39,107 nucleotides of DNA, taken from positions 1 to 39,107 of the forward strand of contig CAZJUB010000019.1 of the NCBI GenBank assembly GCA_964549075.1, read 5' to 3'. The DNA is from an uncultured archaeon (GTDB taxonomy: Archaea > Asgardarchaeota > Heimdallarchaeia > Heimdallarchaeales > Heimdallarchaeaceae). The notes below the pieces were generated by a model. That model did not search any database and was not told the origin of the DNA. It was given only the letters and a program-made list of their open reading frames with translations. How positions within the stretch are numbered: the first letter of the stretch is position 1; each line of letters starts with the position of its first letter. The position numbers were made by a program, and so were the translations under genes. This document shows, in pieces, positions 27,108-30,603 of the stretch.

Positions 27108-27200
27108 ATATAAAGATATCGGAATATTGATATATTAGGCAAAGAATGCCTCGTCCACAACATTATTAAAGTTTCAATATATCGATATATTGATATAATA
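27108..27200. promoter_or_regulatory. Divergent promoter with paired operator-like repeats
   Basis: Perfect palindrome TCAATATATC-GATATATTGA (27174-27193); 19/22 direct repeat at 27116-27137 and 27179-27200; TATA-like boxes at 27108-27115 (-) and 27163-27170 (+). Confidence 0.7.
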
Positions 27201-29302
27201 TGAGATCGAATAAAATAGAAATCTTAATTGCAACAGCAATAATCAGCTGTTTAGTCATACCTTCTTTGACAGTTTTTGGTCAAGAAGGTCATATTAGAGA
27301 ACAACAAGGAGATTTGTTTTTGTCCGAAAATCCCTTGTCAAATGTAACTATTGAAATGATAACAGACCTTCCAGCTCATAGATCAGATGGCATACCTTCT
27401 ACACTCCCAGATAGTACTTTTTCCGTACAATTTAATATTACTAATTATTCTGATCAAGAAATCAGAGAATTAGAATTCTGTCCCTCATCTAATGACTATG
27501 GAATTATTTTAAATCCTCTGAATTTGACTAAAGATACCCTTGAAGTAAACGAATCTTGGATAACACCAGAGTACGACATAGAGACAACCTCTGCATCAGG
27601 TACTTCTAGTGGTGCTTTAGATTTAGCTATTGTACTGGATCAATCGGGTTCTATGGGAGATGAGATATATGCTTTAACTAATCAATTAATTGATGTCATT
27701 GACGAAATAAGTACTGAAGTACCGAATCTTAGAATTGGTTTAGTTTTGTTTGGTGGTAGTTCTTCAAATCCCTATAGTGATTCTAGTCTAGTAAATGATT
27801 TAACTTCTGATATCGAATCAATTGTAGAAGTGCTCAGTTACACACAAGCTACAGGTGGTCATGAGCCATGGGGAGATGCTCTCTGGGTTACTCAAAATAG
27901 ACTAACTTGGAGAGATGATGCAGTAAAGCTAATAGTACTCATCACTGATGAACCATGTGATAGTGGAGAGATTATAGGAACTTATGGAAGCACTCTAGAC
28001 TATGATGGGCCAGAGTTATATGACCTCTTTGGAAGTCTCGCATCTGATGGTTTCATCGTTTGTTCATTTGCTGCAAGTGGAGCAGATAGTTTAACTTTAA
28101 AGCAGCTCAAAGCAGTAGCTGACTATACTGAAGGAACCTATATAGAATTTGGTAATGATGGACCTCAAACAGGTGATATCCCCCAAATAATAGGAGAGTT
28201 AATTGTCTACTATGCAGTTGAGTTAAATCTAAAAATTATCATTAATTTATCCCATCTAAATGATCTTGATATAAGAGAATCAGTAGATAGAGTCTTTGTT
28301 ATACTCGTTGATGATCTCCCACCAGAAATAGATTCAGGGGCTTATTTAAGTGAAGATTTCATCTCAGATGAGAAGTTCATCAATATACTATGTGAAATAA
28401 AGGATGTAACTGGAGCCGCTTATGTTGATATTTACTATAAACCTGGTGGATTGAGTTATTGGATTATAGCTAATGCAACTTTAGTTTATAATTCTAGTTA
28501 TATATTAACGATACCTTATGATCACTCGTACAGTACTCTACTTTATCAAGTCTATTCAGTAGATTGGTTAGGTAACGAAGTTTTAACTGATCCTCTTACA
28601 GTAAACATTATAGATCTAGAAAATCAAGAAATAATTCGACCAGGAAAGAGAAAAGAATATGTTTTGCTTCCAAATCAAGCCATAATCTGTAAATTGTTGA
28701 ACGATGGATCAGAAAATTCTTTTGGAATAATATTCTCTGAAAACTTAAATGAATTTGATACTCTAGCTGCTGACGTGAATGAATCAACACTTCTTCTTGA
28801 TAATGATAACGAACCTTTCAACTTTGTTGAAGTAGAAAAAGGTCATTTAGTTAAATTGTCCTTAATCTCACAAAATACAAATAAAATCATGGTAACAAAT
28901 GTTATTCCTTCGGAAATTGATTTTGGTTATAATGCCAAGCTAAATTTAGACACTACAGATGCATATTTGTATAAAATAGATAATAGTTTTACAGATAAAA
29001 AATCAAGAAGTTTTGTTGCTGACTCTCAAGTAGTTCAAACAGACATATTGCTATTCAATGCTAGTGACTGGGAGCATTTGGGAACTGGTTCTTCAGAAGT
29101 TTTCCTACCAGAAGAAGTAATCTATGTTCTGTTCTATGCCGTATATCACACCGGAGAGGTATATGTAAGCTTTGATTATGAAGATGCTTATACACCATAT
29201 GAGCATTATTATTCTGGAGCTATGCCATTTAACTTCTGGTATTTCTTAATTCCATTATTTGGGATGGCTGCAATTTATACAATGAAAAAGAGACACGGGT
29301 GA
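27200..29302 (+). CDS. Cell-surface von Willebrand factor A domain protein
   Basis: Signal peptide; LDLAIVLDQSGSM MIDAS motif, RIGLVLF, GGHEP, WRDDAVKLIVLITDEP; beta-rich C-terminal half; C-terminal TM plus KKR. Confidence 0.9.
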   Translation: MRSNKIEILIATAIISCLVIPSLTVFGQEGHIREQQGDLFLSENPLSNVTIEMITDLPAHRSDGIPSTLPDSTFSVQFNITNYSDQEIRELEFCPSSNDYGIILNPLNLTKDTLEVNESWITPEYDIETTSASGTSSGALDLAIVLDQSGSMGDEIYALTNQLIDVIDEISTEVPNLRIGLVLFGGSSSNPYSDSSLVNDLTSDIESIVEVLSYTQATGGHEPWGDALWVTQNRLTWRDDAVKLIVLITDEPCDSGEIIGTYGSTLDYDGPELYDLFGSLASDGFIVCSFAASGADSLTLKQLKAVADYTEGTYIEFGNDGPQTGDIPQIIGELIVYYAVELNLKIIINLSHLNDLDIRESVDRVFVILVDDLPPEIDSGAYLSEDFISDEKFINILCEIKDVTGAAYVDIYYKPGGLSYWIIANATLVYNSSYILTIPYDHSYSTLLYQVYSVDWLGNEVLTDPLTVNIIDLENQEIIRPGKRKEYVLLPNQAIICKLLNDGSENSFGIIFSENLNEFDTLAADVNESTLLLDNDNEPFNFVEVEKGHLVKLSLISQNTNKIMVTNVIPSEIDFGYNAKLNLDTTDAYLYKIDNSFTDKKSRSFVADSQVVQTDILLFNASDWEHLGTGSSEVFLPEEVIYVLFYAVYHTGEVYVSFDYEDAYTPYEHYYSGAMPFNFWYFLIPLFGMAAIYTMKKRHG

Positions 29303-30603
29303 TAAGACTGAAAAAACTACAAAATTCACTTCTCTTTTTTTTCTTCTTTACTATGTTTATACTGAGTGAATTACATGTTACTACATTAACATATTCTAAT
29401 ATAATACAAACAGACATTCAGACTCATCAACTCTATTTAAATCCCTTAGCAAATGAGACAACTTATTATGTCCAGGTAGATACAGAGTATCTTGATTTCA
29501 GTATCTTAGTTAATCACTGGGGCACAAATTTAGGAGGAATATATCAAGGATTAGTAATAAGCCTTATTTTTGATTATAATGACACTGAAATAAAAAGTTG
29601 GCTGATATCTTATAATGATAACATAGAACACTTTTTCACAACAGAAACTAGAATAAGTGGAATTATTAGAGTAGTTTTCAGCTGTATGAATGTTGATACA
29701 ATTGGATATAATTTAAATATTGATGACTATTTTACAGTATGGACATATGAACTAGTTTGTAAACCAGATTTTAAGATATATTTTGGAGTTGAGAGAGCGG
29801 ATTATTATGATGAATTACAGCAGATTGTATTAGATTTTCAGAAAGGATTTAGTAACGATAGTTATTTTTCTGCAACAGTAACTGATGATATAAATGTTAC
29901 GAGAGATCTTATTGAGAGCTCTTTTGATAATTACAATAGACATATGATATTTTATTCTTCCTTCATCGAAAATAAATGGTATGGTTTTAATTTTGCACTA
30001 GAAGATTATAATTCAACAGATTGGATAATCATTAGATTATTTTATGATCATATTGAAGAAAATTTCATTGCTAGATTGTTTCTAAATAAGAGCGTATCTG
30101 CATTTGAAGAAATGCCACTTGATCAAGTTCATTCACAAAGCGAATACTGGTGGTATATTGACTCATATTATTATCATCCTTATCCTCCAGGTTCATCTAT
30201 TATTGTATTTATACTAAATTTATTAAAATATATAGTCATAAGCTTTCTTGTTGTTGGATTGATTACAGCAGTAATTAGAGCTATACTCAAACGAAGACCA
30301 AAACCAGATATTGATTTTAATCCTTCAGATAAATACGATTACATGAATGCTAACATTGCATATAATCCTGAACCAACACACGCTATACGATTTGACTCAG
30401 TTTCTAGAGATTATGAATTAAAAACCTCCGAAGGTAGTAAAATACAATGTTCGATCTGTATGCAAATAATTGAAAAGAATGATAACATAATTAGATGTCC
30501 TTCTTGTGATGTGGCATATCATAAGGATCACCTCTATCAATGGATTGTTGGTAATGGAACTTGTCCTACTTGTAAAGCTCGTCTAAGGATTACAACCAAA
30601 TAA
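29299..30603 (+). CDS. Single-pass membrane protein with cytoplasmic RING finger (putative E3 ubiquitin ligase)
   Basis: Hydrophobic N-terminus, sequon-rich ectodomain, TM plus KRRPK, then C-x2-C-x12-C-x2-C-x4-H-x2-H-x3-W-x6-CP-x-C at 30448-30573. GTGA overlap with the vWA gene. Confidence 0.85.
   Translation: MIRLKKLQNSLLFFFFFTMFILSELHVTTLTYSNIIQTDIQTHQLYLNPLANETTYYVQVDTEYLDFSILVNHWGTNLGGIYQGLVISLIFDYNDTEIKSWLISYNDNIEHFFTTETRISGIIRVVFSCMNVDTIGYNLNIDDYFTVWTYELVCKPDFKIYFGVERADYYDELQQIVLDFQKGFSNDSYFSATVTDDINVTRDLIESSFDNYNRHMIFYSSFIENKWYGFNFALEDYNSTDWIIIRLFYDHIEENFIARLFLNKSVSAFEEMPLDQVHSQSEYWWYIDSYYYHPYPPGSSIIVFILNLLKYIVISFLVVGLITAVIRAILKRRPKPDIDFNPSDKYDYMNANIAYNPEPTHAIRFDSVSRDYELKTSEGSKIQCSICMQIIEKNDNIIRCPSCDVAYHKDHLYQWIVGNGTCPTCKARLRITTK

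Follow-up and report, generated by a model that had tools for sequence, protein, structure and literature searches.

A receptor-like RING protein encoded together with a MIDAS-containing vWA surface protein in Heimdallarchaeaceae

Two overlapping genes on contig CAZJUB010000019.1 of an uncultured heimdallarchaeial archaeon encode a pair of predicted surface proteins. One is a type-I membrane protein with a von Willebrand factor A (vWA) domain that carries a full metal ion-dependent adhesion site (MIDAS); in the other, a β-sandwich ectodomain is joined through a single transmembrane helix to a RING finger. The whole contig (C19; 39,107 nt) was analysed and is referred to below as the window; it belongs to a metagenome-assembled genome of 3.2 Mb (GenBank GCA_964549075.1) that is 89.7% complete. 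The architecture of the two proteins is conserved among relatives, their genes are tightly linked, and the same genome carries genes for ubiquitin, ubiquitin-activating (E1) and ubiquitin-conjugating (E2) enzymes and ESCRT-III. We propose that the pair forms a heteromeric surface receptor or adhesin of Heimdallarchaeaceae, whose second subunit would be a membrane-anchored RING ubiquitin ligase (E3). Taken with its full mechanism, we give this proposal an even chance; we are more confident of the architecture, and less so of the targets and of the events that would follow ubiquitination. The parts of the locus that carry the argument are as follows, with positions in the window.

27200-29302, + strand: gene for the vWA/MIDAS type-I membrane protein (signal peptide, β-sandwich 49-129, vWA domain 140-339, β domains 343-660, transmembrane helix 680-699, basic tail)
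27638-27652, + strand: MIDAS motif DxSxS, D147-Q-S149-G-S151, followed by M-G-D154-E155; conserved in 20 sequences
29237-29302, + strand: C-terminal transmembrane helix of the vWA protein, with its five-residue basic tail KKRHG; GGTGA occurs in the last codons
29299-30603, + strand: gene for the RING protein, 434 residues, GTG start (signal peptide, tandem β-sandwich ectodomain, transmembrane helix, linker, RING)
29416-30048, + strand: ectodomain core of the RING protein, two all-β domains (residues 40-150 and 157-250), predicted local distance difference test (pLDDT) above 90
30193-30291, + strand: transmembrane helix (residues 299-331) followed by Lys/Arg-rich stop-transfer residues, from the AlphaFold2 model
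30292-30438, + strand: cytoplasmic linker, predicted to be disordered (pLDDT 36-47), with Y355-x-P357 ... F365
30448-30573, + strand: RING finger C384-x2-C-x12-C-x2-C-x4-H-x2-H-x10-C-x2-C425 with I386, W415, P423 and K426, from Pfam and the alignment

The finger of the RING protein is, by its sequence, of the RING-H2 ligase kind. Pfam zf-RING_2 (PF13639) matches residues 383-426 with 31.4 bits against a cut-off of 27.3, and the best sequence matches in the PDB are all RING-H2 ligases: Arkadia (E 1e-8), EL5 (1.3e-5), RNF165, RNF38, RLIM, RNF24, RNF126, RNF13 (2e-3), ZNRF1 and ZNRF3 (7e-3). RING ligases contact their E2 through a hydrophobic residue after the first zinc-binding cysteine, a tryptophan in the helix, a proline after the seventh ligand and a basic linchpin after the eighth. 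We take I386, W415, P423 and K/R426 to be the corresponding positions holding the E2~ubiquitin conjugate. Across 22 sequences, W415 and P423, the Trp and Cys-Pro positions that had been noted on first inspection, are invariant; position 386 is Ile in 21 and Val in one, and position 426 is Lys in 19, Arg in two and Asn in one. The zinc ligands C384, C387, C400, C403, H408, H411, C422 and C425 are likewise invariant, as are R399, P401, D404 and L412. The spacing departs from the canonical C3H2C3 pattern in that the fourth ligand is displaced, with all eight ligands still invariant. Mean pairwise identity is 0.70 in the RING, compared with 0.39 and 0.32 in the two halves of the ectodomain, 0.20 in the transmembrane helix and 0.34 in the linker, which makes the finger, as judged from the alignment, the most conserved region of the protein.

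An AlphaFold2 model of the RING protein, built on a 22-row alignment (mean pLDDT 77), places a helix at residues 3-30, all-β domains at 40-150 and 157-250 (pLDDT above 90), a transmembrane helix at 299-331 and a disordered linker at 333-379 ahead of the RING. The two helices, the Lys/Arg residues after the second of them and the sequons of the ectodomain together point to a signal peptide, a single transmembrane pass and a cytoplasmic RING. Retention of the sequon N52-x-S/T in 20 of the 22 sequences fits an extracellular ectodomain. The model and the Pfam match thus bear out the layout given in the initial annotation, namely a signal peptide, an ectodomain of about 270 residues (which is all-β), one transmembrane helix, a linker and a C4H2C2 RING. 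Within the linker, Y355, P357 and F365 are invariant in all 22 sequences, making Y355-x-P357...F365 a candidate short linear motif.

The ectodomain itself appears to be a new, lineage-specific tandem β-sandwich. Pfam gave no match to it even at E values up to 10, and the protease-associated (PA) family PF02225 matches only contig C61 in this genome, not the ectodomain. A Foldseek comparison with the PDB, which the initial annotation had suggested as a check, returned weak and generic β-sandwich or jelly-roll likenesses, all with a query TM-score (TMq) of 0.19 or less among the matches listed: a secreted protein of Parabacteroides (3e-5), CUB domains of MASP-2, a tandem collagen-binding domain of ColG, the SIDT1 ectodomain and domains of Vip3. 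No PA structure was among these listed matches, and with Pfam, PF02225 and Foldseek all failing to support it, homology to PA domains was rejected. A profile of 20 ectodomains, searched against 1.84 billion representative proteins, found only 18 cluster representatives; the four that were inspected (P0015, P0017, P0019 and P0021) have the same ectodomain-transmembrane-RING build. The ESM Atlas gave leads only, all scoring below 0.9, with the nearest named clusters carrying a PPC domain.

The product of the upstream gene is a vWA protein by Pfam (VWA, 33 bits against a cut-off of 23.8; VWA_2, 31.4 against 27), with a sub-threshold match to vWA_SIBA-E and no Pfam match outside the vWA domain. 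An intact MIDAS and a near-absent cytoplasmic tail, both reported at the outset, were confirmed. Among 20 orthologues D147, S149, S151, D250 and E155 are invariant and T215 and D154 are at least 90% conserved; the stretch D-Q-S-G-S-M-G-D-E resembles the MIDAS/ADMIDAS of integrin β-I domains. Only 4-8 basic residues follow the transmembrane helix. The AlphaFold2 model (mean pLDDT 81.5) comprises a signal helix, a β-sandwich at 49-129, the vWA domain at 140-339, β domains at 343-469 and 483-660, and the transmembrane helix at 680-699. In Foldseek, all 50 matches listed are integrin entries, the best at E 5.4e-11; the chains are nearly all B or D, which we take to be β subunits, with one from αX. 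N-x-S/T sequons conserved in all 20 sequences argue for an extracellular location. An archaeosortase sorting signal at the C terminus was considered and rejected: no archaeosortase CTERM model of NCBIfam matched at E up to 0.1, and a PGF-like motif is not conserved there, the conserved residues being only H669, Y670 and W680. An exosortase-family gene is present in the genome (C176), so some processing of this C terminus is conceivable.

The two open reading frames (ORFs; 700 and 434 residues) share 4 nt, the GTG start of the RING gene at 29299 running into the TGA of the vWA gene as GTGA. One gene caller's record begins the RING protein at a later ATG, giving 416 residues. This start was rejected, as orthologues keep a Lys/Arg-rich n-region and a hydrophobic core upstream of that ATG; the GTG is preferred because only this start gives the window protein a signal peptide like those of its homologues. 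In all 19 fetched loci that contain both genes, the RING gene begins at most 7 nt after the vWA stop and overlaps the vWA gene by no more than 4 nt. By our own reading, GGTGA closes the vWA coding sequence in the window and in 11 of these 19 loci, forming a Shine-Dalgarno-like word 5-8 nt before the next start that may serve the initiation of the RING protein. Given the conserved junction and this word, translational coupling of the two genes across the loci is plausible, and they probably form a co-transcribed, translationally coupled operon.

Conservation of the pair was evaluated across the order. A search for related loci with a single protein found none, and its alignment-based repeat found nine. 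A RING-protein profile was then used on all 47 genomes of the order. Matches that contain the ectodomain or the family-specific C terminus occur in 25 of the 31 genomes of the window's own family (f1), made up of 21 of 25 in its genus and four of six in other genera; the ectodomain family is absent from all 16 genomes of the other three families (f2-f4), where only the RING finger matches. Twenty loci were fetched with their flanks, and in 19 the vWA gene lies directly upstream of the RING gene; the pair is also present in loci L054, L058, L061 and L062 (genomes G004 and G005 and two metagenome contigs). The gene pair whose conservation was left open at first is therefore conserved. In L058, the most divergent relative (27% identity), it keeps the 4-nt overlap despite a different downstream gene, and in genome G010 the pair is retained with different upstream genes. 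Because the pair is kept in these two loci with differing flanking genes, it is a module and more than a by-product of synteny. In the exception, G007 (L053), the RING gene lacks a signal peptide, the vWA gene is missing and a transposase-like ORF lies nearby. No paralogue of the vWA protein or of the ectodomain was found elsewhere in the window's genome. The pair evolves fast: identity to the window proteins is 29-56% for the RING protein and 36-63% for the vWA protein, against 73-95% for the adjacent Orc1/Cdc6. The idea of an anti-phage defence system was rejected after a PADLOC search, which gave no match for the vWA, RING, wHTH, TM477 and RAM proteins (the last three being neighbours described below) and only weak P-loop matches for ParA.

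Association of the two proteins was evaluated by co-folding vWA residues 28-700 with RING-protein residues 36-335 in ESMFold2, using our own alignments and three controls. The interface score ipSAE was 0.59, 0.60 and 0.64 (median 0.60), with 0.00 for each of the three controls. Contact agreement among the runs is at least 88%, and partner pLDDT is at least 83. The mark used for this score was reached by 58 of 80 solved complexes and two of 110 mismatched pairs, a calibration that is only roughly valid with our own alignments. Co-folding of the two ectodomains, proposed with the first description of the locus, thus supports their binding weakly. Because this weak support is joined by the conserved coupling of the genes, we rate a heterodimer of the vWA and RING subunits as somewhat better than even. 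The suggestion that the vWA protein is a ligand-binding co-receptor is likewise weakly supported by the co-fold.

Consistent with a ligase function, the genome holds a ubiquitin system, as the initial annotation had presupposed: four UQ_con (E2-like) matches, two ubiquitin matches, three ThiF/E1 matches and two Snf7/ESCRT-III matches. The E1, E2 and ubiquitin genes sit on contigs other than that of the vWA-RING locus. A helarchaeial E1/E2/RING cascade is reported, in a preprint, to be active in vitro on an ESCRT-I-like protein (10.1101/2023.07.25.550441).

On contig C18 (30516-37753), an E2-like domain (35968-36258, inside a 470-residue ORF), an E1 (36661-37401) and ubiquitin (37556-37753) are encoded in a cluster, with two Snf7/ESCRT-III genes some 5 kb away; this is an Asgard ESCRT-ubiquitin neighbourhood. 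The other three E2-like matches are at C2:31670-32041, C22:28368-28844 and C8:31567-31836, and a further E1 is at C22:32909-33808. The genome also holds at least 12 ORFs with a C-terminal RING, nine of them with predicted transmembrane segments (contigs C5, C1, C8, C7, C13, C4, C118, C72, C16, C44 and C22). By our own reading, seven of the 12 have the same CPxC-x4-H-x2-H variant of the finger, and one of these lies between E2 and ubiquitin-E1 genes on contig C22. The RING protein at that place on C22 has six transmembrane segments. Another, at C8:9395-12424, is a 1010-residue helicase-like protein that ends in a RING, and frames of similar length occur in many related genomes.

These observations allow us to propose a mechanism. 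The first subunit would present an integrin-β-like vWA domain with a full MIDAS on top of a stalk of β-sandwich domains, with almost no cytoplasmic part. The second would contribute two β-sandwich ectodomains, one transmembrane helix, a disordered linker with a conserved motif and a cytoplasmic RING-H2-type finger. Binding of a ligand or surface by the MIDAS subunit, or clustering of the receptor, would change the state of the associated RING subunit, whose finger could then recruit one of the organism's E2~ubiquitin conjugates. The E2 would ubiquitinate the complex itself, in its Lys-rich juxtamembrane region, or else other proteins close by in the cytoplasm or membrane, and the tagged proteins would enter the ubiquitin-ESCRT or proteasome machinery encoded in the genome. 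The architecture, its conservation, the tight linkage of the genes and the presence of ubiquitin, E1, E2 and ESCRT-III genes are observed; the binding of the subunits, the E3 activity of the RING, its targets and the consequences of tagging are our inferences.

The vWA-RING pair is transcribed away from a second set of genes, with which it shares an intergenic region of 100 bp. The features of this region, and the genes on its other side, are listed here.

24535-27099, - strand: divergent neighbour operon, with genes for a winged helix-turn-helix (wHTH) protein (26725-27099), a ParA/MinD-like ATPase (25965-26723) and a two-transmembrane surface protein (24535-25968)
27118-27132, + strand: operator-like box 1, ATCGGAATATTGATA, between the divergent genes; related loci retain a copy
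27163-27170, + strand: TATA-like element ttattaaa, preceding the vWA ATG by about 30-37 nt; putative promoter element
27181-27195, + strand: operator-like box 2, ATCGATATATTGATA, separated from the vWA ATG by 4 nt; conserved there in all of the 19 loci shown, G010 among them

The pattern ATCG-N(1-2)-ATA[TC]TGATA has two copies in the 3.2-Mb genome, both between the vWA and wHTH genes. The 15-nt boxes are probably the operator of a dedicated regulator, and the adjacent wHTH protein (124 residues, with weak Lrs14/Sta1-like matches) would be the likeliest candidate for that regulator. Similar A/T boxes (tttaaata, ttatata) stand at the place of the TATA-like element in related loci. The vWA-RING operon probably has a short leader or none and is under the control of a dedicated regulator. 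In the neighbour operon, the ParA/MinD-like ATPase (252 residues; AAA_31, 83 bits) has a stop that overlaps the next start by 4 nt, and the protein that follows (TM477, 477 residues) has transmembrane segments at both ends and a large middle part, with no Pfam match. Of the 20 loci, 17 have a ParA match beside the pair; G010 and G007 lack one, and the contig of G016 ends before that point. The wHTH-ParA-TM477 operon is thus possibly linked to the vWA-RING pair. An obligatory link was rejected, since in G010 different genes stand upstream of the pair.

The ORF that follows the RING gene, at 30611-30958 (+ strand), encodes a stand-alone Lrp/AsnC ligand-binding (RAM) domain. Its homologues align only from about residue 35-38, and its real start is probably the ATG at 30722 (78 residues), about 119 nt past the RING stop. 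The Orc1/Cdc6 gene (30955-32181, - strand) adjoins the module and is 73-95% identical across the loci; given this highly conserved neighbour, the region is strongly syntenic and possibly origin-proximal. A 510-residue ORF at 32756-34288 (- strand) resembles an AMP or thymidine phosphorylase in its sequence. Upstream of the neighbour operon, 23843-24379 (+ strand) encodes a small GAF-domain protein.

Several observations weigh against the proposed receptor ligase and have to be set beside its rivals. In the alignment with Arkadia, C403 falls at the place of the third cysteine and V405 at the position of the fourth ligand, His, with C400 as an extra ligand; the finger is thus a C4H2C2 variant in which ligand 4 is displaced. 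Prok-RING_1 (PF14446) matches residues 381-410 with 25.3 bits, below its cut-off of 29.1, and some prokaryotic RING fingers may function outside ubiquitin pathways. A finger of this kind could serve as a zinc-stabilised module for interaction or oligomerisation, tethering the surface complex to a partner in the cytoplasm such as the ParA-like ATPase or the wHTH protein, with no transfer of ubiquitin. The setting is compatible with such a role, as the locus adjoins the wHTH-ParA-TM477 operon, shares with it an operator found nowhere else in the genome, and lies on a different contig from the E1, E2 and ubiquitin genes. We nevertheless judge it unlikely: each of the E2-holding positions I386, W415, P423 and K/R426 is retained in 21 or all 22 of the sequences, the proteins of solved structure that are nearest in sequence are active ligases, a RING gene in the E2-ubiquitin-E1 cluster on C22 encodes this CPxC-x4-H-x2-H variant too, and in G010 the pair stands without the ParA neighbours. 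The integrin likeness, too, is limited. Pfam Integrin_beta reaches only 18.3 bits against a cut-off of 24.8, over residues 140-194 alone, and the integrin Foldseek matches score low (TMq 0.22-0.24, target TM-score 0.22-0.45, root-mean-square deviation 14-20 Å), so that the likeness is secure for the vWA domain only. A bolder form of our proposal, in which an integrin-like adhesion receptor with a RING E3 subunit turns contact with a cell or matrix into ubiquitination at the membrane and delivery to ESCRT, arose independently of the eukaryotic PA-transmembrane-RING (PA-TM-RING) ligases, and has its own operator switch read by the wHTH protein, strikes us as tentative and, as a whole, rather unlikely.

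The case for a complex meets similar points. At ipSAE of 0.60 or less, the weak band in which the co-fold falls, there are only seven of the 80 solved complexes together with both mismatched pairs, and adjacency was seen mostly in close relatives whose genomes are broadly syntenic, so that conservation of the pair partly reflects shared descent. In addition, three genomes carry what looks like damage: the RING gene has one in-frame TAG in G027 (L049) and is split in G005 (L062), and G007 shows the losses described above, reflecting either repeated decay of a dispensable module or assembly error. The two products might be no more than co-expressed surface proteins, for instance an adhesin plus a membrane E3 that acts independently through a sensor domain of its own. 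That account seems quite unlikely to us: the tight junction is retained in 19 of 19 loci and also in the 27%-identical L058 with its different context, both proteins lack paralogues in the rest of the genome, G007 is without the vWA gene and also without the signal peptide of the RING protein, and all three co-fold controls scored 0.00. It has also been suggested, in the initial annotation, that the vWA protein is itself the substrate; the RING subunit would regulate the turnover of the vWA protein by ubiquitinating lysines in the short basic tail. The tight gene coupling would suit a dedicated substrate, and 19 of 20 tails have at least one Lys in the last eight residues. This part of the earlier view fares poorly, however, and we consider it very unlikely: the tail extends only 4-8 residues past the membrane and in one orthologue (RNRRR) has no Lys, basic residues are expected there anyway as stop-transfer signals, the tail codons supply the GGTGA before the RING start and so have another reason to be conserved, and the juxtamembrane region of the RING subunit is itself richer in Lys. 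The heteromeric receptor with a RING E3 subunit remains the reading we prefer.

Asgard archaea are known to have RING ligases and ubiquitin-ESCRT genes, for which neither membrane targets nor inputs have been described. In the literature searched we found no description of an Asgard module that joins a RING protein to a vWA protein, and an earlier mention is possible. Asgard RING ligases as such being known already, what appears to be new is a receptor-shaped RING ligase candidate coupled to a MIDAS surface protein. Such a protein with its MIDAS partner offers an experimentally tractable candidate for regulated ubiquitination at the archaeal cell surface, by which extracellular events may be coupled to ubiquitin tagging within the cell; the cytoplasmic domain, E1, the E2s and ubiquitin are all amenable to expression. 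If the bolder form of the proposal is right, outside-in signalling by ubiquitin would exist in the archaeal group from which eukaryotes arose.

Among known systems, the soluble RING E3s of Caldiarchaeum and Helarchaeia have the same kind of finger in a genome with E1, E2 and ubiquitin. They are small cytosolic proteins encoded in a ubiquitin operon, whereas the protein described here is receptor-like, encoded away from that operon and coupled to a vWA gene. Plant RGLG proteins likewise combine a MIDAS-type vWA (copine) domain with a RING ligase; there, both domains are cytosolic and in one chain, in contrast to two chains with the domains on opposite sides of the membrane here. Integrin β, and Sib of Dictyostelium, share with the archaeal vWA protein a type-I build, an extracellular vWA domain and a full MIDAS, the archaeal motif D-x-S-x-S-M-x-D-[DE] resembling the MIDAS/ADMIDAS of β-I domains, and the archaeal protein is likewise probably paired with a second type-I β-sandwich subunit. 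The resemblance stops at the vWA domain: the PSI, hybrid, EGF and β-tail domains of integrin β were not found by Pfam in the archaeal protein, whose tail of 4-8 residues has no NPxY, and its partner has no β-propeller and carries a RING instead.

Among the closest counterparts of the RING subunit are the PA-TM-RING proteins (RNF43, ZNRF3, RNF128/GRAIL and RNF13), which share its signal peptide, ectodomain, single transmembrane helix and cytoplasmic RING-H2-type finger; the Heimdallarchaeaceae RING aligns to those of RNF13 (E 2e-3) and ZNRF3 (E 7e-3). Ligases of the RNF43/ZNRF3/GRAIL/RNF13 type act with a co-receptor and down-regulate surface proteins. The topological likeness to RNF43, ZNRF3 and GRAIL drawn in the initial annotation holds for the order of ectodomain, transmembrane helix and RING, but not for the ectodomain, which is no PA domain; the archaeal RING also differs in being C4H2C2 with its fourth ligand displaced. 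Its further description as a pre-eukaryotic form, if meant as ancestry, is not supported, because the ectodomain occurs in a single heimdallarchaeial family only and has 18 cluster representatives in the 1.84 billion proteins searched. On the same ground, the likeness to RNF43 and ZNRF3 is best read, from the sequences, as one of architecture, analogous and not orthologous. Should the archaeal protein prove to be a ligase, the ectodomain-transmembrane-RING design would not be a eukaryotic invention; since the family is lineage-specific, it has no bearing on the direct ancestry of RNF43 and ZNRF3, and speaks instead to the ease with which such receptors arise.

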